Shown here: positions 1,765 through 16,380 of the stretch, one piece after another
Layout of the letters: the number at the start of each line of letters is the position of its first letter
Position numbering within the stretch: the stretch's first letter is position 1
Source: an uncultured Gemmatimonadales bacterium
Lineage (GTDB): Bacteria; Gemmatimonadota; Gemmatimonadetes; Longimicrobiales; RSA9
DNA length: 64,000 bases
Reading direction: 5' to 3'
Assembly (NCBI GenBank): GCA_963741945.1
Contig: CAVUKA010000003.1
Span: forward strand, 723,998-787,997
Notes under the pieces: model-generated
Told to the model about the DNA's origin: nothing
The model's input: the letters and a program-made list of their open reading frames with translations, nothing else
The model's database searches: none
Translations under genes and position numbers: made by a program

Positions 1765-1991
1765 TCGTTCGCGTCCCCCAATGCAGGAGAGCCGCGTCCA
1801 GTGCTGGCGGCGCGGCTCTGCAATTTCGTGAACTCGGCAACGCCCTTCGCTCAGCGGTCGCTGCCCATGTGGCGAAAAGCTCTACGCAAGCTCTCTGCCA
1901 TCATCTCAGAACGCGTATGTAGATGCGAAGGTCGGGCGGCGCACCGGCTCGGAGCGGCGCTGGCCGGGCCGCGGGGTGGAGGCTCGCCCCG

Positions 1992-2306
1992 TCAGGCGAC
2001 CTGGGTGCCCTCGCGTTCGACGGCCTCGGTATCCGCCCCGGTGGCGGACGGCTGGTCGGGGGCGGGGTCGTCGTCGTGGAGGACGCGGCCGTCGCTGCCG
2101 AGGTGGCGGGCGGCGATGGGGTGCAGCTCCTTCAGCTTCCCCTGGACATGGTCGAGGTGCGGCAGCACGTGCGCCCTGTAGCAGGCCGGGCAGAGATGGA
2201 AGTAGCCGTGATCCGGGCGCAGGTCGATGAACGGGCCGAACCACAGGGTCATCAGCCCGATCATCTTCTGCGGGTTGGAGGACCCGCACCGCTGGCAAAG
2301 CGGCAT
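1992..2306 (-). CDS. Small hypothetical protein with Zn-ribbon-like CxxC...CxxC
   Basis: MPLCQRCGS...HLCPACY; protein-like composition. Alternative GTG start at 2318. Confidence 0.6.
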   Translation of the reverse strand: MPLCQRCGSSNPQKMIGLMTLWFGPFIDLRPDHGYFHLCPACYRAHVLPHLDHVQGKLKELHPIAARHLGSDGRVLHDDDPAPDQPSATGADTEAVEREGTQVA

Positions 2307-2465
2307 CGCCACATTCACCTCCGGCCGGGAGGACCACGTCTCAATTTCGCTGGTCGTGGCAGGGAACGACAGGTTGAAGGCGACGCGTGGCCCGTTCCCG
2401 TGGCGAGGGAGTGCCCGCTCGCCGGTGAGGCGGGGCCGCCGGCCAGGCTGGCGGAATCCTGGCCG

Positions 2466-4175
2466 TCAGCTTCCGCTGACCACCAGGACCTCGCCTTCGC
2501 GGAGCGGCCGCGCGCGGCCCATGGAGTTCCAGCGCACCAGGTCGTTGATGTGGACCCCGTATCGCCGGGCCACGGACGTCAGCGTCTCACCGCGCGCCAC
2601 CCGGTGCCGCTCCGCTGCCGGCGGAGCCACGCGGATGACCTCTCCCGTGCGCAGCGGCCGCGCCCGCTCCATTCCGTTCCAGCGCACCAGGTCGTCCAGG
2701 CTCACGCCGAGCGAAACCGCCAGCTCGCTCATGGTGTCGCCGGGGCCCACGCGGTGGGTCTCTCGGTCGGCGACGGCGGGTGTGGCCCGCGCGGCCGCCG
2801 CCACCTTGCCCGCGGGGGCGACGGCCGTGGTGCTGGACGGGTGGCCTTCGCCGGCCGCGGACGCCACGGCACCAGCCGAGCGGGCGCTCGACTGGCCGGC
2901 CGTCGTGGCCAGCTGGGAGTCCGTCACGATGGTACGGTCCACGAGGAGGCGCATCCCGGGCTGGATGATGTCCCGCACTTTCGGGTTGAGGGCGCGGAGC
3001 TGCTTGAGCGTCACACCGTGCGCACGGGCGATCCGCCAGAGCGAGTCCCCGGACTTCACCACCACCCAGACCTCCCGGTATTCCGGCAGGATTCGATCCG
3101 GCAGGGGGAGTGCCGCGAGCCGGTCCCCGAACTCGGGTTGGAGTGCGCCCACGGGCACGCGAATCGGGTATTTCAACCCCGGAGGCGCCGCCCCGCGCAC
3201 CAGGTGCGGGTTGAGGTTCTTGACCGAGTCGACGGAGATGCCGGAGGCCCGCGCCACTGCGCTCAGGCGGGTGCGGCCGTCCACCAGAACGGTGTCGTAC
3301 GCCAGTGGTGGCTCCTCCGCCACCTCCGTGAACCCGTACCGCTCCCGGTTGCGGGCCACGTGCGCCGCGGCCAGGATCAGCGGTACGTAGCTCCGGGTTT
3401 CCGCCGGCAGGCGACCCTCGCGGACCAGCTGGAAGTACCCGGCCCCCGATCCGTTCTGCGCCCGGCGAACCCGTCCCAGGCCGGCGTTGTACGCAGCCGC
3501 CGCCAGCGCCCAGTCGCCGAGTTCGTCGTGGAGCAAGGCCAGATGCACCACGGCCGCCCGCGTCGCCGCCACCGGGTCCCGCCGCTCGTCCACCCAGTCG
3601 TCGATCCTCAGACCGGAATAGCGGCCGGTGCTGCGCATGAATTGCCACAGCCCCACCGCCTTCGCACGCGACACCACCGTGGCTGAGAAGCCGCTCTCCA
3701 GCATCGCCAGGTAGAGCAGCTCCTCCGGGAGACCCGCGCTCCGCAGCTCCCCCAGGATCAGGTCCCGGTATCGCCCCTCGCGCGACAGCCACCTCTCGAA
3801 GTTGGCTCGCGCCCTACCGGCATGGAACAGCTCCACATCCCGCTCCACCTCCGCAGCGATCTCTGGAGGAAGGGTCCCGTCCTCTCCGGCGAACAACCCG
3901 TTCAGCGTCAGCGCCTCCGCCGCATCCAGCTCCGCAGGCAGCGATCCGTCCGCCTCCTCCAGCGCCGCGTCCCCCAGCTCCTCCAGGCCGGCCGGATCCC
4001 CCATTCCATCCGCGGAGCCGTCCAGGTACGCCGTCTCCGCGGCATCCGCCATCTCGCTTCCGACCTCCTCCGGGACCGGACCGGCTACGCGCACGCCTCC
4101 GCAGCCGGCCAGCGCGAACGCGAGTGCGAGGGGGACCAGGGTACCGGGACCGCGTCGTCGCTGGGTATCAGGCAT
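2466..4175 (-). CDS. MltD-like lytic transglycosylase lipoprotein (SLT domain plus about 4 LysM)
   Basis: Lipobox LAGC; LAMLESGF, AVGLWQFM, AAYNAGLG, ETRSYV; LysM repeats VKSGDSLWRIA, VGPGDTMSELA, VARGETLTSVA. Confidence 0.92.
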   Translation of the reverse strand: MPDTQRRRGPGTLVPLALAFALAGCGGVRVAGPVPEEVGSEMADAAETAYLDGSADGMGDPAGLEELGDAALEEADGSLPAELDAAEALTLNGLFAGEDGTLPPEIAAEVERDVELFHAGRARANFERWLSREGRYRDLILGELRSAGLPEELLYLAMLESGFSATVVSRAKAVGLWQFMRSTGRYSGLRIDDWVDERRDPVAATRAAVVHLALLHDELGDWALAAAAYNAGLGRVRRAQNGSGAGYFQLVREGRLPAETRSYVPLILAAAHVARNRERYGFTEVAEEPPLAYDTVLVDGRTRLSAVARASGISVDSVKNLNPHLVRGAAPPGLKYPIRVPVGALQPEFGDRLAALPLPDRILPEYREVWVVVKSGDSLWRIARAHGVTLKQLRALNPKVRDIIQPGMRLLVDRTIVTDSQLATTAGQSSARSAGAVASAAGEGHPSSTTAVAPAGKVAAAARATPAVADRETHRVGPGDTMSELAVSLGVSLDDLVRWNGMERARPLRTGEVIRVAPPAAERHRVARGETLTSVARRYGVHINDLVRWNSMGRARPLREGEVLVVSGS

Positions 4176-4249
4176 TCGTTCTCTGGCTTTGGGGCGGTGC
4201 GAGGGGACGCACAAACATCTGTCGGATCCCCGCACCTCCGCAACCCCCA

Positions 4250-7100
4250 TCAGCCCCCGGGATCCGGATCGCTGAGGTAGCCCACCGCCTCGTCCTGGTC
4301 GCCGTTCATCAGGACGCGCAGGATCCTGCCACCGGTCACGGCCGGGACATCGATCACGCGGAGCGCGGACGCCACGTGGGCGAACTCCGGCACCAGCTCC
4401 GGCAGCAGGTTGGGCGACTCGAGGAAGAACGCGTCCATGAACCGGTTGCCCGGCTCGTCGGGGTAGAGCGGGAGGTAGCGGATCTCCGCTTCCACGAGGT
4501 CCTGGAAGAAATGGGTGCCGAAGGACAGGTCCGGCAGGTAGCTCCCCTTGCGACGGGCGATCTCGGCGAGCACCGCCGTGTTGTTGATGTCCGCGTAGGT
4601 GACGCTCACGCCCAGGTGGATGTCGCCCCGGCTGCCCCATCGTCCGGGGCCCATGAGGATGAAGCGGCGGCGTGGGAGCAGCTTGTTGAGCCGCCCCACG
4701 GCCCGGCCGACGTCCAGGAGGTGCTTGCGGTCCGGCAGCTCGGCATACGCATCCGGATCCACGTAGACGACGTGCGTCAGCTCGGGGGCCGCGCCGTTGG
4801 AAATGTGCCGCTGACCGGTGAAGAGGATGCGGTCGTCCGACAGGTCCCGGGGGATGAGGGCGCCGACGGCCGCGCCGAGTGCCGACTGCGGCCGGCACTG
4901 GAGCAGGTAGAAAGTGTCCCCGTCGGACGCGAACTCGACGTCCACGGGCATGCCGAGGCGGGCACCCAGCACGTCCAGCAGCGTGGCCACCTGCGCCATG
5001 AACGGGGAGTCGTCGGTGAGGCCTTCGAACGTGACCACGGCGTCTTCGTTTTCGAAATCGACGGCGAGGCCGCGTGGGCGCCGCGCGCGCCCGTTCTCCA
5101 GGACGGAAACGATCTTCTTGATCTGGGGCAGCTCCCGGCCGCATTCCCGGAGCATGCGGTCCACCGGCACGGTCTCCAGCTCGTTGGACTCCAGGTTGAT
5201 CACATCCATGAAGCGCGGGGCGTACCGCACCATCTCCTCGACGGTCGTGTTGACCCGCAGCCCCGGCTGGCGGGGCGCCAGGAGCACGGAATAGTCGTCG
5301 CTGGTGCGATCCACGGCGCGCGTGCCGAGCCCCGGGACGAGCCGGACGAGCCCGTCCTCGCGCCGGATCCGGGGTGACCACCGGAACTCGTTGTGGCTCA
5401 ACGCCACACCCGAGTAGGCGGGGAGGAAGTACCGGCCCACCCGATTGCCCACCACTTCCTGGATCATGATCCCCATCTCCTCGTGGACGTCGAGGAGGCC
5501 GCGCTCGGCGCGGTATTCGATGGGGTCCGGCGCGAAAATGGAGGCGTAGACCTCGGCTACGGCGTCCTGCAGCGCGCTCAGCCGCTCGGCCTTGCTCCCC
5601 TGGTTGGCCAGGAACAGGCTCTTGTACTTGCCACTGAACGCGGAGCCGGTGCGGTCCTCCAGCAGGCTCGAGCTGCGCACGATGAGCGGCACGTCGCCGA
5701 GATCGTCCAGCGCAGCCGCCAGCCCCTTCTCCAGCTCCGGCGGGAACGCGGCGCTCTTGAACACCTGGACCACGTGCGGATACTGCTGTCGCACCCGGTC
5801 GATCTCCAGGTACTTGTGGTCGTAGATGTCGTCCAGGTTGTTGTAGCGGACGAACGCCAGCACCGCGTCCGAGGCGATGTACCAGGTGCGGGGCACCCGC
5901 ACGTTCGACAGCACGCCCTGGAATTCCGCCGAGCTCTCCACCACCCGCTGGGCCAGGAACACGCCCGCGCTCTTGCCGCCCAGGCGGCCGTGGCTGCCGT
6001 GGGGCGCCAGGAGGTGGCGGGCCAGGCGGTGGAAATCGGACACCTGGACCACGCTCCGGGCCGTGTTGATGAACCCGATCTGGTCCGTGAAGAACCGGCG
6101 CAGCAGTGCCACGCGCAGCATGGTCTGGACGGAACGGGGAAGCTCGGCCTCGTCCACTCCGAGCGCCTGGAACCGCTCCAGCGCCTCGGTGACCTCCCCG
6201 AGCGATGAGCCCTGGTCTTCCAGCAGGTGGATCAGGAAGCTGGCCTTGTCCTGGCTGATCCACATCTCGGATGTGGCCGAGGATGTCCTCCTCCGGCAGG
6301 TGCTCCGCCGCCACCCGGAACACCTCCTCCGTGGACGGCGTCGCGGCACCCGGCGTCACACGGGAGAGCGGCCGGTTCTCATCCTGGTCCGACCCGCCGC
6401 TCTCCTCCCGCGACGCCCCCGGCACCAGCGCGTCCGCCTGCGCCACACCCTTCCAGCGGAGGTGGTTCAGCATCTTGCGCGTGATCCACTCCACCAGCCC
6501 CGGGTCCGTGCGGCGGAGGAAGTCCACGATGACCCGCCACTTGGCCCGACGCTCCTCGCCGAACCACTCCACTTCCCTGCCGCGCCGCCGCTCCCGGGCC
6601 GCTGCCAGCTCCTGGCGCATGATGAAGAACGCGAGGCGCTCCGCCACCGCCCGGAGCAGCTGGCGCTCTTCCTTCAGGAACGGTCCGTGATCCGCCTCGG
6701 GCCGCGGTTCCGTGTAGTAGAGGCTGAGCTCGCCAACCGCGTCGTCGCCCACCACCACGGGCGCGCGCTGCACCCACGGCGTCTCGCGGAAGCCGGGGAG
6801 GTGGAACTCCCGGCCGCCCAGGACCAGCGCCGGCTGTGCGACGCCCGGGTACTGCCAGCCACCGGGGAGCGTCTCGAGCACGCGGCGAAAGAGCTCGTCC
6901 TCGGGCTCTTCCCGGCTCAGAATGTCGTCCACCCGGTACAGGCAGCTCAGCTCTTTCGCGCGCTCCCGCAGCGCCCCCATGACGGGGTCGTTCAGCAGGT
7001 GCTCCTCGGCCGTCGCCCCATCCATGCTCTCTTCGTCCACCTCTTCTGCCCGGCCACCCTGGCCGCTCCCCGCCAGCTGGCGGTGCTCATCACTGCTCAT
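4250..7100 (-). CDS. PEP/pyruvate-binding (PPDK_N ATP-grasp) domain protein with N-terminal GAF-like region; one frameshift near 6268
   Basis: N-terminus (LRERAKELSCLY...GPFLKEERQLL) lies in the 2466..7235 frame; the rest lies in ORF 4250..6349 (GRLGGKSAG, VRSSSLLED, FSGKYKS, GLGTRAVD, VDVEFA, LLQCRP, GRWGS, LSFGTHFF). Removing one base joins them as HI-x-MWISQDK. Confidence 0.85.
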
Positions 7101-8836
7101 CTCTCCCCTTCCGGCCGGCGAACCACCCCGCGTCTCGCGCGGCCATCCACCCGGATCCGCAACGGCTGCTCGAGCCGTACATGTCGCACGTGTTCCATCT
7201 CCCTCAACGCCGGCTGCCGGTCCAGCCAGTCCCAATCGATGCCGGCACCGAGACCGTGCCGGACGGTGAAGTAGAGTACTCCGAAGCTGGACAGATTATG
7301 GAAGAAGTGCGACCCCTGGCTCGGCTCCACATCCATGTGCGGGAGCGTCGCTTCCACAAGCGCCCGCGCAGAGGCCACGTGGCTCCACTGTACCGGGATT
7401 CCCAGCCACGGATCCGAGCTGCCCCACCGGCCGAAGCCGATCAGCATGCACTCTCGTCCCTCCTCCAGCAGGGAAGCGTTCACCTCGGCCACTTCCCTGG
7501 CGATCGCCGGCGTCCGCTTCGCCTCGAACCGGTCGGGGCGCACGTACACCACATCCCGAACATCGTCCCACTCGCCGTTCCCCATGGCCGCCCGGGACGC
7601 CAGGAGCACGTCCGCACCCTCCAGCTCTTCCGTATTCACGTCCACCGCCTCCCCCGGCGCCACCATCCCACGGAGCTGCACCAGCCCCATCCGCATCTCG
7701 GGCGAAGCCGCGGTGGGGAGCGTCGCCGCCAGCTCGATCTCCACGGGGCCGCCCAGCGCCTGCGACGACACGTCCAGCAGCCTCCGGACCACGTCATTGA
7801 GCGGGTGCTGCCGAAGCTCCAGGAGCGGCGCGAAGTTCAGCACCCGGGGGCCATCCATGCCGGTCCCCGGCCGGAGGCGGTCGGCGGATGCGTCGTACGT
7901 GGAAGCCAGATAGCGCAGCGCGCCATCCGCCTCGGCGTCGGCCAGGGAGCCCTCCACCAGGTACTCCTTCTCCTCCACCGGGTCGTACGCCGGCGGCCGA
8001 CCCATGTTCACGGCCCAGAACCGCGTCTGTGTCTCGGCCAGGACCCGCCGGGTCGACGCGAACGGAGCGGGCGCCCGCGGATGCGCGGGCGAGTAGGTCC
8101 AGACCACACCGCCATCCACGATGGTCTTGCCCAACCCGAGAGCCAGGTCCACCACCCCATCCTCCGGCTTCGCTTTCCCGATCGGGTAGTAGCTGTAGGA
8201 GCGGGCCACGGCGGAGAGGTGTGGATAGAAGCGGGGGCCGTGCCGGGCGCCCACGATCTCCTGGATCATGACCGCCATCGACTCGTCGGAGTCTTCCACG
8301 CCGATGACCCTTCGGTACGTCCGCGCGGCCGAGAAGTGGGTGGAGGCATAGACGAACTTCACCGCCTCCAGGAGGCGCGCGAACCGGGCGCGCGGGTCGA
8401 GCTCGAGGTTCGGGATCATCTTGGTCTCGTAGATCCCGGCGAACGGGCGGCCGAGCGCGTCCTCGAGGCGGCTGGAGGAGCGGATGGCCAGGGGCCGCGT
8501 CGCTTCCTCCGCCACGGCGACGAGGTCGCCCACCACCTCACTCGGCAGGTCGGCCGACTGGAAGGCGTGCGCGATCCGTCGATCGGAGAGCCCGGCCAGG
8601 TCGGCCGGATCGAGGCCGTTCCGCCTCATGAACGCATCGAATACGTCCGTGGCGAGCACGACCAGGCGAGGGATGGTGACCACCACCCCACGGAATGCGT
8701 CCCTCAGCTCCGCCGCGCCCGCGTCGTGCGCGCGCAGCAGTCCTTCCGCCTTTCCACCCAGACCGCCGCCTCCGATCCGGGAAAAGACGTCCCCGGATCG
8801 GAAGAAGCGGCGATCGAACCTGGGGACTGGCCCCAT
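7097..8836 (-). CDS. PEP/pyruvate-binding (PPDK_N ATP-grasp) domain protein
   Basis: GGKAEGL, IRSSSRLED, FAGIYET, GLGKTIVDG, VEIELA, GRWGSSDPWLGIP, SQGSHFFHNL. Stop overlaps the ATG of the next gene. Confidence 0.88.
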   Translation of the reverse strand: MGPVPRFDRRFFRSGDVFSRIGGGGLGGKAEGLLRAHDAGAAELRDAFRGVVVTIPRLVVLATDVFDAFMRRNGLDPADLAGLSDRRIAHAFQSADLPSEVVGDLVAVAEEATRPLAIRSSSRLEDALGRPFAGIYETKMIPNLELDPRARFARLLEAVKFVYASTHFSAARTYRRVIGVEDSDESMAVMIQEIVGARHGPRFYPHLSAVARSYSYYPIGKAKPEDGVVDLALGLGKTIVDGGVVWTYSPAHPRAPAPFASTRRVLAETQTRFWAVNMGRPPAYDPVEEKEYLVEGSLADAEADGALRYLASTYDASADRLRPGTGMDGPRVLNFAPLLELRQHPLNDVVRRLLDVSSQALGGPVEIELAATLPTAASPEMRMGLVQLRGMVAPGEAVDVNTEELEGADVLLASRAAMGNGEWDDVRDVVYVRPDRFEAKRTPAIAREVAEVNASLLEEGRECMLIGFGRWGSSDPWLGIPVQWSHVASARALVEATLPHMDVEPSQGSHFFHNLSSFGVLYFTVRHGLGAGIDWDWLDRQPALREMEHVRHVRLEQPLRIRVDGRARRGVVRRPEGER

Positions 8837-8860
8837 GGTCTCTTTCGCGCGGTGCCTGGG

Positions 8861-10153
8861 CTAGACCCAGCCGCGATCCCGGCAGGCCTGGGCCACCCGG
8901 TCCACTGCAATGACGTACGCGGCGTCGCGCGTGAACAGGTTCTGCTGCTTCGCCACTTCGCTCACGGCGACGAACGCGGAGGTCATCTTCACGTCCAGCT
9001 TGCCCAGGACCTCGTCGCGCTCCCAGAAGTAGTTCATGTTGCTCTGCACCTGCTCGAAATAGCTGGTGGTCACGCCGCCGGCATTGGCGAGCAGGTCCGG
9101 GACCAGGAACACCCCGCGCTGGTGCAACACCCGGTCCGCCTCCGGGCTGGTGGGCCCGTTGGCACCCTCGGCGATGATCTTCACCCTCGCCGGAATCCGG
9201 TCCACGTTCTCCGCGTTGATCTGGTTCTCCAGCGCGGCGGGGATCAGGATGTCCACGTCCTGAGCGAGCCAGTCGTCGCCATCCAGGATCTCGTAGCCCA
9301 GCTCTTTCGCCCGCGTCTTGTCGATCCCGCCAAAGCGGTCCGCGATCCCCTGGAGCTCCGCCAGGTCCACACCGCCGGCCCGGCTGAACGCGTAGCTCAC
9401 CTGGTCCGCCTGGTCCCACGAGCTGACGCAGACCACCTTCCCGCCCAGCTGCGTGTACAGCTCGATGGCGTACTGCGCCACGTTGCCGAAGCCCTGCACG
9501 CTCGCCACGGTGCCGCTCGCCTCCATGCCCAGTTCGCGCAGCGCTTCCCGGATCGTGAAGACGACGCCGTACCCCGTCGCCTCCTTCCGCCCCAGGCTGC
9601 CACCGAGCCCCACCGGCTTCCCGGTGATGAATCCCGGCAGGCGCTGCCCGTAAATGGTCTCGAATTCATCGAGCATCCACAGCATGTGCTGCGGCGTGGT
9701 CATGACGTCCGGCGCCGGCACGTCCCGGGTCGGGCCCACGTCTCGCGCGATCTGGCGTACCCAACCGCGCGAGATCTGCTCCTGCTCCCGCAGGCTAAGG
9801 TCGTGCGGATCGCAGATCACGCCGCCCTTGCCACCGCCGAGCGGGATATCCACCACGGCGCACTTCCATGTCATCCACATGCCCAGCGCGCGCACGGTGT
9901 CCAGGCTCTCCTGCGGGTGGAAGCGAATGCCACCCTTGCTCGGACCGCGCGCGTCGTTGTGCTGCACCCGGAAGCCGCGGAACACCCGCACGCTGCCATC
10001 ATCCATCCGAACGGGGATCGCGAAGCTGTATTCCCGCATCGGCCACCGAAGCAGATCGCGCGTGCTCGCCTCCAGCTCCAGCAGGTCCGCGATGCGATCG
10101 AACTGCGCCTGAGCCATCTCGAACGAGTTGTAGGCTCGAGTGCTCTTCTTCAT
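8861..10153 (-). CDS. gdhA: Glu/Leu/Phe/Val dehydrogenase (glutamate dehydrogenase)
   Basis: RVQHNDARGPSKGGIRFHP, MTWKCA, GGGKGG, DVPAPD, ITGKP, ATGYG, QGFGNV, EGANGP, NAGGV. Confidence 0.95.
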   Translation of the reverse strand: MKKSTRAYNSFEMAQAQFDRIADLLELEASTRDLLRWPMREYSFAIPVRMDDGSVRVFRGFRVQHNDARGPSKGGIRFHPQESLDTVRALGMWMTWKCAVVDIPLGGGKGGVICDPHDLSLREQEQISRGWVRQIARDVGPTRDVPAPDVMTTPQHMLWMLDEFETIYGQRLPGFITGKPVGLGGSLGRKEATGYGVVFTIREALRELGMEASGTVASVQGFGNVAQYAIELYTQLGGKVVCVSSWDQADQVSYAFSRAGGVDLAELQGIADRFGGIDKTRAKELGYEILDGDDWLAQDVDILIPAALENQINAENVDRIPARVKIIAEGANGPTSPEADRVLHQRGVFLVPDLLANAGGVTTSYFEQVQSNMNYFWERDEVLGKLDVKMTSAFVAVSEVAKQQNLFTRDAAYVIAVDRVAQACRDRGWV

Positions 10154-10396
10154 ATTATCGGACTTTCGACGTGATCATGGTTGCGATTGCCTGCCCCACC
10201 CCCCACCCCAGCCCGCACCAAGATAGCCCGGCCGGCCGGGGCCGTATAGTAGGGAAAAGCGCGCAACGCGTGTAGGGCGGGAACAGAGGGAAACCAGGGT
10301 CGGGCGGGAACGGTGGGGTCGGTCCTGTCCCGGGCCCCCGCATCGTGCTAGCATCCCGGCGGGAATCCGCGTTTCAAACGCTCTCCGGAGGCTCTC

Positions 10397-10699
10397 ATCG
10401 ACACGCTCACTTCCAAACAGCGCGGCCACCTCCGTACACTGGCGCACCACCTGAAGCCGCTGCTCCAGATCGGCACCGACGGGGTCACTGACGCGGTGGC
10501 CGACGCCATCCGCGACGCGCTCAACACGCGGGAGCTGCTCAAGGTCAAAGTGCTCGACGGCGCGCCCGTGGATGCGCGCGAGGCGGCAGACGAGCTGATG
10601 CGGAAGATCGATGGGGCGCACGTGCCCCAGGTGATCGGCCGCACGGTGGTGCTGTACCGCCAGCACCCGGAATCGCCGCAGATCCGCCTTCCCGACTGA
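10397..10699 (+). CDS. yhbY: Ribosome assembly RNA-binding protein YhbY (CRM domain); apparent ATC start
   Basis: LTSKQRGHLRTLAHHLKPLLQIGTDGVT...ELLKVKVL...QVIGRTVVLYR. GGAGG lies 5 nt before ATC 10397, and there is an in-frame TAG at 10349. Confidence 0.9.
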   Translation: MDTLTSKQRGHLRTLAHHLKPLLQIGTDGVTDAVADAIRDALNTRELLKVKVLDGAPVDAREAADELMRKIDGAHVPQVIGRTVVLYRQHPESPQIRLPD

Positions 10700-10832
10700 G
10701 GCGCCGGATGCGCGGCACGGCCGCCGCGTCGCTGAACGGGCACGAGTCCTGCCCCGGCCGTGACGTCGATAGCCAGGCCGCGTCCGCAGTGCGAGGGATG
10801 ACGGCCCGACCTCGTCCTGCGATCCCGAGCCG

Positions 10833-13541
10833 ATGACAGGCAAACCGATCCTCCATACAACCGGGGCGCTCACGGGCACCCTCGTCCTCACCGCTGCTCT
10901 CGCGGCGGGCGCGGCCGCACAGGGCCGCGTGGTGCCGCCCCCGCCGCCCGGCCGCGATACCGTGGTCGCGGCGCCGGGCCCACGCTACGCGGCGGGGGAG
11001 CTCAGGCGCTTCCTGCTGGGCGACGAGTGGCGAGACCTCTGGCAGGTCCCGCTGACGCTCCCTGTCCTGGACATCGAGACGTTCGCCGGCGGGCTGGAGC
11101 CGGACGAGGAGGGTGGCGGCAACCAGTCCATCACGCTCCACCTGCGCGACGCGCGCGGCCGCGACTGGATCTTCCGCTCCCTCGACAAGTACCCCGGCAA
11201 GAAGCTGGAGGAGGGCGGGCTGCTGGCCTGGATCGCCGCGGACCAGGTGAGCGCACTGCATCCGGCGGGCCAGCTCGTCGTCCCCACGCTGCTCGACGCC
11301 CTCGGGATCCTGCACGTCACGCCCACGCTCTACGTGATGCCGGACGACCCCGCGCTGGGGAAGTTCAGGAGCCAGTTCGCCGGGATGATCGGGGCGCTGG
11401 AGCTCATCCCCAACGAGGGGGCGGATGACTCGCCCGGCTTCGCGGGATCGAAGAAGATCGTGAAGACGGAGACGCTGTTCGATCATCTGGGGGAGACCCC
11501 GCTCAACCGCGTCGACCAGCGCGAGCTGTTCCGGGCGAGGCTGCTCGATTTCATCATCGGGGACACGGATCGCGGCCTGGACCAGTGGCGCTGGGCCAGG
11601 TTCCCGGACCCGCAGCGGGCGGACGGACGCATCTGGCGCCCGATCCCCCGCGACCGGGACTGGGCCTTCGTCTCGGGCGACGGGGTGGCCGGCGCGGGAA
11701 TCGGCCTGTTCTACCCGAAGCACACCGCCTACCGCGCAAGGTATGCGGATCTCCAGGCATACACCTTCACGTCCCACATCCTGGACCGCCGGCTTCTCAC
11801 GTCCATCGATCGCGCGGACGCGGAAGCGGAGATCCAGCGCGTCCGGAGCGCGCTGACGGACTCGGTGATCCGCGCCGCCGTCGGCCATCTACCCCGCCGC
11901 TATCCCGAGTCGCACCGGCAGCGCCTCACGCGGCTGATCGAGAGCCGGCGCGACCGGCTCCCGGGGATCGGGAACGCCTACTACCAGTGGCTGGCCAGCG
12001 CCGTGGACATCCGCGCCACCCAGCAGCCGGACTACGCGCGGGCCGAGCGCCGCGCCGACGGCAGCGTGGATGTCGCTCTCTTCCTCCTCGCCGGAGCCGA
12101 GGACGCCGGTCGCGCCGCCGAGCCGTACTACCGCCGCACCTTCCGGCCATCCGAGACCCACGAGATTCGGATCCACCTCCGAGACGGCGATGACCGCGCC
12201 CTGGTCCGTGGTGCGTCCAACGACGAGATCGCCATCCGCGTCATCGGCGACGCGGGCGACGACGTCCTCGTCGACTCCACCAGCGGCGCCAACGTCCATT
12301 TCTACGACGCCCGCGGGGAAAACCGGTTCATCACGGCGGCCGGGACTTCCGTCAGCACGCGCGCGTGGAACCCACCACCGATCCCGGAAGGCGTTCGCCT
12401 GGGGAGCGACTGGTCCCCCGACTTCGGACAGACGCTCGGCTGGCGACCGGCCGCGGAATACGGCGAGCACGCGGGCGTCGTCGTCGGCTTCGGACCCCGG
12501 TGGACCGGGTACGGCTTCCGTCGCCTGCCGCACGAGTGGCAGGTCGGGGGCACCGCCCTCTTCGCCCTCGGCGCGCTGCGCCCCGGCGCCAGCGCCTTCG
12601 TGGACTGGCGGCCGGAGAACTCCCTCCATTCGCTGCACGCGGACGCCCGATGGAGCACGTTCGACGCGATCCGCTGGTACGGACCCGGGAACAGCTCTCC
12701 GCGCATCGATGACGACCTCTCGCTCGTCCCGCTACGCCGCGCTTCCATCCGCCCCGATCTCATCCTCCGCTTCGGCACCTGGCGCGCCGAGACCAGCCCC
12801 GACTCCCTCGTCATCAACGAGGCCGCGATCAGCGACGAGACACCCTCCGGCTTCCGGACTTCCCTGGCCCTGGGACCGGTGCTCACCTGGACCGATCCCG
12901 CACCACGCACCCCCGCGGACGGCAGCCCCGACGTCATCCCGCCCGGCGCTCCCTCCGACCAGGGACGCGCGCTCGCGGCCGGCACCGTCTTCCAGGCGGG
13001 CGCCGGCGCCCGCTTCGACCTCAGTCAGACCGACCGCGCGGTCGCACCGCGCAGAGGCTATCTCCTCTCCGCTTCCGCCCAGGGGTTCCCCGGCTTCGGC
13101 CGTGGCGATGCCGGCGCCTCCGGCAACGCGGCCGCCGAGATCCGCGCCTACTTCCCGCTCCCCGCCGCCGCCGTGCTCGCCACTCGCATTGGCGCGGCCG
13201 GCGCGTTCGGCGACTTCACCGCCTGGAATGCCGCCACCCTCGGCGGCCGCGCCAACCTGCGTGGCTACCCCTACATGCGGTTCGCCGGTGACGCCGCGGC
13301 CTACGGCAACCTCGAGATCCGCGCCCCCATCGCCTCCGTCCCTCTCATCGTACGAGGAAAACTCGGCCTCCTCGCCCTCGCCGATGCCGGCCGCGTCTGG
13401 TTCCGCGGCCGCTCTCCCGGCGGCTTCCATACCGCCCTCGGCGGCGGCATCTGGTTCGCCGGCGGGGGTGAAGCGGTCTCCCTCTACTACGCCCATGGCG
13501 AGCGCGGCCGCCTCTATCTCTCCTTCGACATGCCCTTCTGA
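10833..13541 (+). CDS. Omp85/BamA-TamA family outer-membrane protein with N-terminal kinase-like region
   Basis: Signal peptide; C-terminal beta-barrel with [15 protein letters not shown] and terminal F; N-terminal [34 protein letters not shown]. Confidence 0.8.
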
Positions 13542-13695
13542 GCCCGCGTACGCCGCGCGACCCGGGTACTTCTTCGAAGCCGGCAAGGGCCCGGGCCCGC
13601 TTCGACGCCGCGGTCATGGAACCTTTCCGGAGACCAGTGTATTACTGCCCCGTTATACAACGAACGGTTTACCAGTGAGACCCCGGGGGGACACG

Positions 13696-14031
13696 ATGGC
13701 GGAGAACGTGATGGAGCTGGAGGACGCGCAGTTCGCCAGCGAAGTGGAAGAGAGCGATGGCATTACGGTTGTGGATTTCTGGGCGCCGTGGTGCGCGCCC
13801 TGCCGCCTGGTAGCGCCGGTGGTCGAGGCGCTGGCGACGGAGTACGACGGGCGGGTCCGGTTCGTGAAGGTGAACGTGGACGAGAGCCCGTCCGTTGCGT
13901 CGCGCTATGGAATCCGTTCGATTCCGACGATCGGGATCTTCAAGGACGGCGAGGCGGTGAATGGGGTGGTCGGTGCGGTGCCGAAGCAGGTGCTGATCCA
14001 GGCCATCGAAGAGGTGCTGAGCGCGAACTGA
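13696..14031 (+). CDS. trxA: Thioredoxin
   Basis: [26 protein letters not shown]; 111 aa. Confidence 0.95.
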
Positions 14032-14062
14032 GCGCCAGTCCGGCGTTTCGCCGATTCGCCCG

Positions 14063-14103
14063 GAGAGGGCGCCCGCTGCGGTGGGTGCCCTCTCTTCGTT
14101 TCT
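14063..14103 (+). terminator. Intrinsic terminator after trxA
   Basis: GAGAGGGCGCCCGC-tgcg-GTGGGTGCCCTCTC stem followed by TTCGTTTCT. Confidence 0.65.
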
Positions 14104-14126
14104 GCTCGTGGTGAATGTGAGGGTGC

Positions 14127-15251
14127 GTGGCGGATCCGACGGTGGGCGTGGAAGAGGAGTACCAGCTGGTGGACCCGGCAACCGGGGGCCTGCGCAGCGG
14201 TGCGGTGCATGTTCTTCGCTCGTCGTGGACGGACGACCTGCAGCCGGAGCTGCAGGAGACGATGGTAGAGATCCAGACGCCGCCCTCGACCTCGATGGCG
14301 GAAGTGGCGGAGCACCTGCGCAGGCGGCGGCTCACGGCTTCCGCGAGTGCGGGCGTCGAGGGTTTGGAGATCGTCTCGGCCGGAACGCACCCCTTCAGTG
14401 ACTGGCGGGGCCACGTGGTGGCCGAGGGCGAGCGCGCCGACCTGCTGGTGGCCCGCTTCGGTCGCGTCGCATGGACGGAGCACATCTTCGGGCTGCACGT
14501 CCACGTGGCGCAGCCGGTGGGGCTGGATGCCGCCGTGGTCCTGCGGGAAGCGCGCTGGCTCAGTCCTCTCCTGATCGCGCTGTCGTGCAGCTCGCCGTAC
14601 TACCAGGGACAGGACACGGGGTACGCGTCCTACCGGTCCGTCATCCAGCGTCGCCTCCCGCTCACCGGCCCGCCGCCGGCGACGGAGTCGAAAGCCGCCT
14701 ATGATGCCCTCGTGGACGGTCTCCTGCGCGCGGGCGTGCTCCCGGACACCCACACCGTGTATTGGAACGTCCGGCTGAGCGCCGTGCACCCCACCATCGA
14801 ATTCCGTGGGATGGACGCCTGCCCCCGCGTCGAGGACGCGGTGGCGATCGCGGCACTGGCACGGGGCGCCGTGGCGCACGTGGCGACCGGGGGCACGATA
14901 CGCCCGCCCGGCGGAACGGGCGACCTCGACGACACACTGCTCGGATTGAACGAGTGGCAGGCCGCGCGCTTCGGTCTCGAGGCTCCCCTCGCGCTGCCCG
15001 GCGAGCGCGGCATCCGCGGCGGGTCCATCAGGGAGGAGGCGGACCGCGTCCTGCATCTTCTCCGCCCCTGCCTGGTCCGCCTCGGCGATGGCGATGCAGA
15101 AGCCCTGGTCCACGGAATCCTCGAGCGCGGCACCGCGGCGGACCGGCTCCGCGAGCTGCGCTCCGCTGGCCGCGACATGCGCGGCCTCGTAGACTGGCTG
15201 CGGACGGAAAGCCAGCTCGGTCTGGGCTCCGCATCCGGCGATGCGCCGTGA
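14127..15251 (+). CDS. ybdK: YbdK family carboxylate-amine ligase (GCS2)
   Basis: TVGVEEEYQLVD, AGTHPF, FGLHVHV, SSPY..G.DTGYASYR, TIEFRGMD. Confidence 0.9.
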   Translation: MADPTVGVEEEYQLVDPATGGLRSGAVHVLRSSWTDDLQPELQETMVEIQTPPSTSMAEVAEHLRRRRLTASASAGVEGLEIVSAGTHPFSDWRGHVVAEGERADLLVARFGRVAWTEHIFGLHVHVAQPVGLDAAVVLREARWLSPLLIALSCSSPYYQGQDTGYASYRSVIQRRLPLTGPPPATESKAAYDALVDGLLRAGVLPDTHTVYWNVRLSAVHPTIEFRGMDACPRVEDAVAIAALARGAVAHVATGGTIRPPGGTGDLDDTLLGLNEWQAARFGLEAPLALPGERGIRGGSIREEADRVLHLLRPCLVRLGDGDAEALVHGILERGTAADRLRELRSAGRDMRGLVDWLRTESQLGLGSASGDAP

Positions 15252-15282
15252 ACACGCGCCGAGGCGGCGGGTAAGGCGAGGA

Positions 15283-16380
15283 ATGTCGAGCGAACCGACA
15301 GAGCAGCGCCTGAACGGGGGCGAACGGAAGCGATGGAACTGGCGCAGCCACATCCGTTTCCTGCCACTCCTCTCCCTGGCGCTGGGTATTGGTGTGGCCG
15401 CCGTTGTGGCGGCGCGGGCCGGGGCGAGCGTGGCCGATGTCGCGCGCGCGCTCCCCGCCAACGCACACCTCCTTGCGTTTACCGTGATGGCCGTGGAGCT
15501 GGGAGCGCGCGGCATGCGGTGGGTGCTTCTGGCGCGCGGGGTGGGCGTGCCGCTCCGTTTCCGCACATCGCTGCTGGCGCAGCTCGCCGGCGAAGCAGCG
15601 GGGGCGGTGACACCCTCGCGGATGGGGACGGAGCCCGCGAAGATCGCCATCGTCACGCGGAGCTCCATCACGGTGGCGAGCGCGGGGGCCATCCTGGCGG
15701 GCGAGCTGCTGGCGGAGGCCTCCATGCTCATGGTCACCGTGCTCGCGCTGAGCACGATCGTCCCCGCGGGTGAGCGCCTGCCCGTCCTCGGGGTTCTGGT
15801 GTATGCGACCATGATGGCGTGCGGCGCTCTCAGCGTGGTGGTGCTCGCCCGGGCGCGCCCGAAGCGCACGCCGCCCGGCTGGTGGACGCGGCTGCGTCTG
15901 TCGGAGCGGCAATGGCGGAGGCTGCGCGTCACGTCCCATCACCTGCGCTACCGTGTGAAGCGGCTCCGGCGACTGTCGGGCACGGCCATCGCCAGCGTGC
16001 TCGTCGTGACGGCCATCCACATCGCCGCGCGCCTGTCCGTTCTCCCGGTCATGGCCAGCACCGTGGAGACGCCCACGTCGGTGATCCCGCTGGTGACCTG
16101 GCCCCTCTTCTTCTTCTACGCCGGCACCCTCGTCCCGAGCCCGGGGGGCGGTGGCACCATCGAGCTCGGCTTCGCCCACATGCTGGGCGGGTTCCTCACG
16201 GCTCGATCCATGGCCGGCCTGCTCGTCTGGTGGCGTTTCTACACCTTCTATCTGGGTGCCATGATCGGCGGCATTGCGGTGGCCGTCACCGCGCTGCGGG
16301 GCCGCACCCAGCGCCGCCGGGCTCGCGCGCTGGCCCGCGCGGCCGAGAACGCCGAGGACCCGCCGGCGGAGGCGGCATAG
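15283..16380 (+). CDS. Lysylphosphatidylglycerol synthase TM / flippase-like membrane protein
   Basis: Multiple TM segments; TPSRMGTEP, PSPGGGGTIE, WWRFYTFY. Alternative start at 15241. Confidence 0.8.
   Translation: MSSEPTEQRLNGGERKRWNWRSHIRFLPLLSLALGIGVAAVVAARAGASVADVARALPANAHLLAFTVMAVELGARGMRWVLLARGVGVPLRFRTSLLAQLAGEAAGAVTPSRMGTEPAKIAIVTRSSITVASAGAILAGELLAEASMLMVTVLALSTIVPAGERLPVLGVLVYATMMACGALSVVVLARARPKRTPPGWWTRLRLSERQWRRLRVTSHHLRYRVKRLRRLSGTAIASVLVVTAIHIAARLSVLPVMASTVETPTSVIPLVTWPLFFFYAGTLVPSPGGGGTIELGFAHMLGGFLTARSMAGLLVWWRFYTFYLGAMIGGIAVAVTALRGRTQRRRARALARAAENAEDPPAEAA

Follow-up and report, generated by a model that had tools for sequence, protein, structure and literature searches.

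A three-gene operon on the minus strand of the window, a 64,000-nucleotide stretch of DNA from an uncultured Gemmatimonadales bacterium (contig CAVUKA010000003.1), encodes a glutamate dehydrogenase (GDH1) followed by two dikinase-related proteins, here called par1 and par2. The two proteins and their dedicated glutamate dehydrogenase (GDH) probably constitute an undescribed control system for a central enzyme of carbon and nitrogen metabolism. In the mechanism that we favor, the PPDK_N ATP-grasp domain would load a phosphoryl group from ATP onto an invariant histidine of a divergent swivel domain, and the phosphohistidine state would then be passed on to a partner protein or recognized by it, because par1 and par2 themselves lack an acceptor-binding domain. 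The partner would most likely be the GDH1 of the same operon, its activity being switched by energy or nitrogen status. A GAF-like module at the N terminus of par2 would supply the input, and par1 and par2 would work as one complex. We infer autophosphorylation, the par1-par2 complex, and the GDH target alike, and an ATP-driven histidine phosphotransfer module that controls its own GDH is proposed tentatively, as a reading that stops a little short of being probable.

The three genes are co-directional, in the order gdh, par1, par2, in DNA with a G+C content of ∼70%. An earlier note on this DNA had described this gene order together with a 24-nucleotide gap after gdh, a first paralog of 579 residues, and an ATGA overlap between the paralogs, all of which are present on the minus strand. 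The TGA stop codon of par1 (7099–7097) overlaps the ATG start codon of par2 (7100–7098), with a GGGGAGAG box just 5′ of it. Coordinates of the features are collected in the table below.

Both paralogs possess an ATP-grasp core of the kind found in pyruvate phosphate dikinase (PPDK) and phosphoenolpyruvate (PEP) synthase. The Pfam domain PPDK_N (PF01326) matches residues 26–391 of par1 (E = 1.7e-28) and also par2 (E = 2.3e-53), in both cases above the 27-bit cut-off, and the ATP-grasp motifs pointed out earlier in the two proteins are borne out by these matches. The AF2 model of par1 has a pLDDT of 87.2. Its ATP-grasp domain resembles that of rifampin phosphotransferase most closely (RPH; 5hv1, Z 24.9, root-mean-square deviation 2.9 over 287 residues), followed by HpeI (9goj, Z 18.5) and maize PPDK (1vbg, Z 13.0); in whole-protein structure searches with par1, ATP-grasp matches filled the lists. 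Across 145 par1 and par2 sequences, identity is at least 97% at 66 columns, which include GGK, RSSS.LED, QE, E, Q.R, GRWG, and S.G.HFF. The motifs GGK, RSSS.LED, QE, and Q.R presumably play the ATP-grasp role that we assign to them from PPDK and PEP synthase. Because the ATP-grasp and histidine motifs are kept in these 145 sequences, both paralogs look catalytically competent.

Neither protein has space for an acceptor domain. In the par1 model, the ATP-grasp domain ends near residue 393 and the C-terminal domain (C-domain) starts near residue 408. The protein stops at residue 579, and par2 at residue 949, each straight after the C-domain. The pyruvate-binding TIM barrel (PEP-utilizers_C, PF02896), which the earlier note had already judged to be missing, and the histidine domain PF00391 (PEP-utilizers) gave no Pfam match in par1 or par2. 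That these are nevertheless an ordinary PEP synthase or pyruvate phosphate dikinase might be supposed from the PPDK_N match, from weak and partial matches to PEP synthase models of NCBIfam, and from the JGI and NCBI annotations of relatives, some of which read "pyruvate, water dikinase." The NCBIfam models for PEP synthase, RPH, and PigC/RedH, however, cover the ATP-grasp part only and score 20–56 bits against cut-offs of 598–1350. The best of the PEP synthase models reach 51–56 bits (cut-offs 598–883), and the RPH model NF041857 reaches 30–36 bits (cut-off 999); no substrate-binding domain separates the ATP-grasp domain from the His domain. Moreover, canonical PEP-utilizers proteins exist elsewhere in the window's genome, where three matches lie above the cut-off. 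Since three defining features are lacking, an ordinary PEP synthase can be treated as excluded, and its probability as negligible.

The C-domain carries the putative phosphohistidine. The last 175–195 residues of par1, par2, and a third paralog align with one another (alignment A2), with invariant N, L, G-R, S-x-G-x-H-F, Y, and G. The motif S-x-G-[ST]-H-F-F is invariant, and its histidine column corresponds in the joint alignment to residue 510 of par1 and residue 613 of the second-frame open reading frame (ORF) of par2. S.G.HF. is present in 143 of the 150 best family representatives. The elements GRWGS and S(Q/F)G(S/T)HFF, first noticed by eye in the two proteins, are therefore real and conserved. 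The A2 profile returned only chance-level rows when compared with Pfam and PDB sequences, PF00391 remained unmatched by 34 C-domain sequences at E values up to 10, and hhalign gave a probability of 0.4% against 28 canonical PEP-utilizers domains taken from the window's genome and 20 relatives. The sole local hhalign match spans 9 columns (IRVDGRARR against ITIDGATGR).

At the level of the fold, a possible relationship emerges. The par1 C-domain modeled alone has a pLDDT of 94.3, and the conserved histidine (His111 of the model) opens the helix formed by residues 110–118. The catalytic histidine of PPDK likewise opens a helix. In an exhaustive VIA comparison, the best matches of this model were the PK C-domain of 2e28 (residues 475–582, Z 7.0), the His domain of RPH (756–867, Z 6.9), a DRTGG domain (Z 6.9), PPDK 1vbg (385–511, Z 6.6) and 2fm4 (Z 6.5), and Enzyme I 2wqd (Z 5.9) and 5woy (Z 5.8). 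Six of these seven are phosphohistidine-type domains, with Z scores of 5.8–7.0 over 103–118 aligned residues. The C-domain is read as a very divergent swivel-type His domain, at fold level only, because the VIA matches, though middling in score, point together to the carrier domain of this enzyme superfamily and the invariant histidine opens a helix. Of the His-swivel fold implied previously, the part that stands is this middling structural resemblance to phosphohistidine domains from RPH, PPDK, and Enzyme I; the profile comparisons remained blank.

The association of par1 and par2 with gdh is widespread. Relatives of par1 number at least 7977 at E ≤ 0.001 among 8000 candidates scored (90% clustering). 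With a C-domain profile, 2379 representatives were found in a 50%-clustered library, 705 of them at E ≤ 1e-30. Species-representative genomes contain at least 543 stretches encoding a par1 relative, and the gene neighborhood was counted in the best 80 of these 543; a gdh gene was scored if it was at least 55% identical, at most 800 nucleotides upstream, and on the same strand. By this measure gdh lies directly upstream of par1 in 70 loci; 1 locus has it in divergent orientation, 6 lack it, and the remaining 3 have no room for it (70 of 77 informative loci). The par2 gene directly follows par1 in 76 loci; it is absent in 2 and has no room in 2 (76 of 78 informative loci). The linkage with gdh that the earlier note had reported from a single locus is thus upheld by the survey. 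The 80 loci bear ∼11 phylum labels (Acidobacteriota, Gemmatimonadota, Planctomycetota, Ignavibacteria/Melioribacter, Bacteroidota, Calditrichota, Zixibacteria, Chloroflexota, Eisenbacteria, Marinimicrobia, and Spirochaetota), and two metagenome-assembled genomes are labeled Alphaproteobacteria. In-frame fusions of par1 to par2 through a linker of 20–30 residues occur among the representatives (P0241–P0243), although these may be miscalled metagenome genes. Together with the ATGA overlap, the fusions argue that par1 and par2 act as one unit.

The glutamate dehydrogenase itself is distinctive. GDH1, which belongs to the hexameric 47-kDa class, matches ELFV_dehydrog_N (PF02812, E = 3.5e-53) and ELFV_dehydrog (PF00208, E = 4.6e-71), and its closest solved relative is 1EUZ (E = 1.8e-123 over residues 9–430); model NF040817 scores 474 bits, below its equivalog cut-off of 750 bits. 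Co-occurrence was followed in a sample of 201 genomes of the window's phylum; the counts for GDH1 and for PEP-utilizers proteins include genomes flagged as unpublished (G157, G097, G182, and G057), on which no claim rests. Matches of the par1 type occur in 8 of the 201 genomes, with par2 adjoining in all of them and gdh at 7 of the 8 Gemmatimonadota loci. GDH1 has matches of 72%–100% identity in seven genomes, all of which carry par1, and in the eighth carrier the copy is cut by a contig end. Outside the carriers the next best match is 53% identical, and an ordinary GDH is found at 44%–48% in most genomes. The par1 carriers also keep an ordinary GDH, and the window's genome has one on contig C1 that is 44% identical to GDH1. 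Because matches of at least 72% are confined to par1 carriers in this sample, GDH1 is, by sequence identity, a dedicated paralog that travels with par1 and par2.

Comparison of GDH1 with 21 unlinked GDHs of the phylum revealed 26 differing columns with a conservation of at least 95% in a set of 71 linked copies. Among them are H117 (71 of 71), H156 (68 of 71), C128, C363, C424, and a W-D insertion at 246–247. Such residues are candidate contact or modification sites, as leads only, since differences of this kind are expected of any paralog. Prediction of a complex between GDH1 and residues 10–579 of par1 gave a score of 0.00 and a mark of 0.32, which is neither for nor against binding. As a separate observation, the long GDH relatives listed include proteins in which GDH is joined to phosphoglycerate kinase (Scalindua-type Planctomycetota), to PF06245 (many proteins of 874 residues), or to HD/PAS/receiver or GGDEF domains (P0418–P0449, P0400, and P0403).

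The pairing with GDH is repeated by other members of the family. A third member in the window's genome (C1:1104292 onward, 994 residues) consists of a receiver-like domain, DUF5752, PPDK_N, and the same C-domain. At its locus (C1:1103010–1107273, L002) it lies 86 nucleotides 3′ of an NADP-type GDH gene of another class, whose product is 33% identical to GDH1. This third paralog adjoins that GDH class in all 16 related Gemmatimonadota loci, 11 times on the same strand and 5 times divergently. A fourth architecture of 860 residues, in which an N-terminal region that looks KaiC/RecA-like by eye precedes the ATP-grasp and His domains (L108:3202–5784), adjoins a gdh2-like gene in three of four loci and is convergent with it at L108. 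The link between GDH genes and the ATP-grasp/His core therefore recurs from one paralogous pair to another. The predicted N-terminal modules (none, GAF-like, receiver-like, or KaiC-like) vary on a constant core, an arrangement typical of signaling enzymes.

The variety of input domains would also suit a sensor whose output is not GDH, in which par1 and par2 respond to energy charge or to a nitrogen metabolite and hand the phosphate on to another target, for instance a regulator, while gdh is merely co-expressed as part of the regulon. GDH, however, is the only conserved partner in the present counts, in 70 of 77 informative loci for this pair, in 16 of 16 for the third paralog, and with an exclusive co-occurrence of the GDH1 type, and the ORF clusters of the 80 loci contain no recurring regulator gene. 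We consider an output other than GDH improbable.

The nature of the par2 N terminus bears on the input. Its invariant columns are ERAKEL.CLY, GWQYP, and GPFLKEE (alignment A3). GAF (PF01590) appears at E ≤ 1 in 13 of 29 par2 homologs, at best with E = 2.2e-4, and GAF-named Atlas neighbors of the region score 0.86–0.89, which is a lead only. A profile of the N terminus compared with PDB returned no GAF domain and nothing else of use. Between this module and the ATP-grasp domain lie ∼190 residues without a domain assignment, and for this middle region (residues 176–366 of relative P0122) Atlas had no named neighbor above 0.86. The N terminus is therefore described as weakly GAF-like. The GAF assignment of the earlier note falls below the Pfam cut-off in par2 itself and retains the weak matches in homologs.

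In the assembly, par2 is split into two frames. The N-terminal frame runs from 7100 to ∼6270, and the second frame is a 699-residue ORF (6349..4250) with PPDK_N at its residues 122–494. The frame break is due to one extra G at position 6268 (atccGagatg). At this point, intact relatives read ...ILGHIQMWISQDK..., with HIQMWISQDK in relatives; the intact relatives span 905–947 residues, and one of them, P0122 (947 residues), is 87% identical. In a public sequencing run (X1), 64% of the sampled words of the stretch are present. A contig of 167 nucleotides from this run, which covers 6141–6308 at a depth of 3.2, lacks base 6268 and is otherwise identical; the assembly may itself have been built from this run. 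Because removal of base 6268 restores the conserved reading, par2 is taken as intact and the frameshift as probably an assembly error. The resulting length of 949 residues agrees with the figure of about 950 given previously for the repaired frame.

By gene content, the window's locus is a cut-down version of a more extensive module. An additional C-terminal NTP_transf_2 domain is present on par2 in 64 of the 80 loci; it is clearly lacking in 2, and 14 loci are cut by contig ends. The motif G-S..D.D is seen in P0165. In 47 loci, all of them among the 64 with the extension, a convergent gene 3′ of par2 encodes a calcineurin-like metallophosphoesterase of ∼290 residues. Examples of this gene among the related loci L012–L091 are L013:5522–6418 and L045:11889–12746. 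Neither the NTP_transf_2 extension nor the phosphoesterase gene was found in the window's genome, and the extension is also missing from several other Gemmatimonadota par2 proteins. These absences and the extra base that the assembly does carry could be taken as signs of decay, with par2 a true pseudogene and the function lost along with the nucleotidyltransferase domain and the phosphoesterase. Against decay, the run contig without the extra base restores the conserved reading, neither half of par2 contains another stop, the identity to an intact relative is 87%, and the form without the extension is common to other Gemmatimonadota (P0122–P0136, L004, L007–L009, L016, and L024). Loss of function is very unlikely on this evidence.

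A more specific form of GDH control can be imagined from the nucleotidyltransferase and phosphoesterase. The operon could encode a covalent switch for GDH, a counterpart of the GlnE/GlnD system for glutamine synthetase. An ATP-driven, Enzyme I-like phosphohistidine relay would modify the dedicated isoenzyme GDH1 or control whether it is modified, and the signal would be a metabolite bound by the GAF-like module. When the system is complete, the nucleotidyltransferase would take part and the metallophosphoesterase would act as the eraser, with H117 and H156 as candidate contact or acceptor sites. This version is speculative, and we think it doubtful.

The main rival to GDH control is that par1 and par2 are metabolite dikinases, which would phosphorylate a small molecule tied to glutamate or 2-oxoglutarate metabolism (ATP + X + H2O → AMP + X-P + Pi), in the manner of RPH, phenylphosphate synthase/HpeHI, and the flavonoid or glucan dikinases. 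GDH would supply or remove the substrate, and the acceptor would bind either to the GAF-like or helical region of par2 or where par1 and par2 meet. In favor of this, the solved folds nearest to par1, those of RPH (Z 24.9) and HpeI (Z 18.5), belong to enzymes that phosphorylate small molecules, a metabolic enzyme encoded in the same operon is what one would expect of a pathway, a metallophosphoesterase gene is present in 47 of 80 loci, and ∼190 residues of par2 have no assignment. On the other hand, no substrate-binding domain is recognizable, par1 being composed of the ATP-grasp and His domains only; the interchangeable sensor-type N termini would be unusual for pathway enzymes; and each of two different GDH classes has a family member of its own as partner. 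To our knowledge, no pathway needs a dikinase-made phosphorylated derivative of glutamate or 2-oxoglutarate. Metabolite dikinases thus appear unlikely, but this is the alternative that we take most seriously.

Phosphotransfer control of GDH1 must in turn be weighed against several observations that count against it. Conserved synteny can be explained equally well by a shared metabolic pathway. The loci, furthermore, are not fully independent: GDH1 is 59%–79% identical to 34 linked copies from other phyla, which suggests that the gdh-par1-par2 cassette spreads horizontally and inflates the apparent independence of the loci. No fusion of GDH to PPDK_N was found among the 120 listed of 255 long GDH relatives, although this is weak evidence. 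For the C-domain, Foldseek gave no match at E ≤ 0.001, the VIA Z scores are only 6–7 (below 8) with a non-His DRTGG domain tying at Z 6.9, and profile and hidden Markov model comparisons with PF00391 domains and PDB revealed no homology. The match of GAF (PF01590) to par2 has E = 0.0062 and 17.5 bits, under the cut-off of 22.4 bits, and covers profile positions 93–130 of 133. Finally, because the canonical module has a nucleotidyltransferase and a phosphoesterase that the window's genome lacks, the mechanism of the full system may not be simple phosphotransfer. Taken as a whole, the interpretation put forward in the earlier note is partly supported: it holds for the domain content and the gdh linkage, tentatively for the fold, and weakly for the GAF part.

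Table. Position of the operon and its component features in the window
Feature	Position	Strand	Basis
Non-coding leader 5′ of gdh; presumed promoter region of gdh-par1-par2	10154..10347	-	sequence reading
gdh1, hexameric-type glutamate dehydrogenase, 430 residues	8861..10153	-	Pfam ELFV domains
gdh-par1 spacer, 24 nucleotides	8837..8860	-	sequence
par1, 579 residues; ATP-grasp and swivel-like His domain, without sensor or acceptor domain	7097..8836	-	
par1 C-terminal domain, residues ∼408–579; invariant His510 is codon 7309–7307	7100..7615	-	
par2, 949 residues without extra base 6268; GAF-like module, unassigned helical region, ATP-grasp, swivel-like His domain	4250..7100	-	
par2 GAF-like module, residues ∼40–170 (ERAKEL.CLY ... 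GWQYP ... GPFLKEE)	6591..6983	-	alignment A3
Extra G splitting par2 into two frames; probably an assembly error	6268	-	relatives and run X1 contig
par2 ATP-grasp domain (PPDK_N)	4868..5986	-	Pfam, E 2.3e-53
par2 C-terminal swivel-like domain; conserved His (LSFGTHFF) is codon 4513–4511	4253..4837	-	alignment A2

The surroundings of the operon are as follows. A same-strand ORF upstream of gdh stops at a TAG near 10348, and gdh starts with the ATG at 10153. In the leader between them, a scan for consensus promoters found no sigma-70-like site; the terminator-like sites from a scan all fall within genes. The gene 3′ of par2 (2466–4151, minus strand) encodes a lytic transglycosylase (SLT domain) with three LysM domains. 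An ORF of 1589 residues (2466..7235) was rejected as a gene; it is a stop-free frame of high G+C content that spans par2 and the lytic transglycosylase. The plus-strand ORF at 12070–14031 has a C-terminal thioredoxin domain behind ∼540 unassigned residues, and the second half of the minus-strand ORF at 5–1840 holds an NAD-dependent epimerase/dehydratase domain; the upstream part of each may be an over-extended frame. Pfam searches were blank for the ORFs at 379–2181, 1923–3686, 10175–10891, 10545–11888, 10833–13541, 11889–12638, 12732–13586, and 13905–15932.

GDH stands at the junction of carbon and nitrogen metabolism, and we know of no dedicated protein-based switch of this kind for the bacterial enzyme. 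Nothing on the module was returned by full-text literature searches, whose coverage excludes ∼1.7 million PMC articles as well as subscription journals. The annotation of family members goes no further than "PEP/pyruvate-binding domain-containing protein" or wrongly names PEP synthase. If the phosphohistidine model is true, the dikinase engine, an ATP-grasp domain and a swivel histidine without an acceptor domain, would have found a new use as a signaling or regulatory device, and an uncatalogued domain family would be added as well. The compact three-gene cassette makes the proposal directly testable by in vitro expression.

Several known systems share parts of this design. RPH (5hv1 and 5fbs; PMC4844700) shares the PPDK_N-type ATP-grasp domain with par1, and its small C-terminal His swivel domain matches the model of the par1 C-domain at Z 6.9. 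Between these two parts, RPH holds a large domain for binding rifampin, which is absent from par1 and par2. In addition, the sequence of the RPH His domain is unrelated to the C-domain at profile level, and RPH has no gdh linkage. PpsA and PPDK (2ols, 1vbg, and 2fm4) have the ATP-grasp motifs GGK, RSS..ED, and Q.R in common with par1 and par2, and the PPDK-type His domains match the C-domain model at fold level (Z 6.5–6.6). They differ in possessing the TIM barrel and the PF00391 signature, and in the canonical T-S-H, seen also in the genome's own PPDK, in place of G[ST]HFF. In the split aryl dikinases (phenylphosphate synthase; HpeHI, 9goj), the dikinase functions are likewise distributed over more than one polypeptide. 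There, however, the ATP-grasp and the His or substrate parts reside on separate subunits, whereas par1 and par2 each hold an ATP-grasp and a His domain and no substrate domain.

The PTS Enzyme I-Ntr (PtsP) has an N-terminal GAF sensor and a swivel histidine, transfers phosphate to proteins, and acts in nitrogen regulation tied to 2-oxoglutarate and glutamine metabolism. The present module would be alike in outline, with ATP replacing PEP, and this is the nearest functional analogy; Enzyme I chains 2wqd, 5woy, and 5t12 match the C-domain at Z 5.3–5.9. In contrast to the ATP-grasp of par1 and par2, Enzyme I obtains its phosphate from PEP via a TIM barrel; no HPr/NPr-like acceptor is encoded here, and no sequence homology was found beyond the fold. 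GlnE and GlnD control glutamine synthetase by nucleotidyl transfer. No homology with them is claimed beyond the Pol-beta-type fold, and the window's par2 lacks this domain, but the NTP_transf_2 domain of par2 in 64 of 80 loci and the phosphoesterase gene in 47 suggest a similarly reversible covalent switch on a nitrogen enzyme. Set beside these systems, the family is best regarded as a known kind of enzyme, the dikinase-type phosphotransferases, in a new form that is acceptor-less and coupled to GDH.

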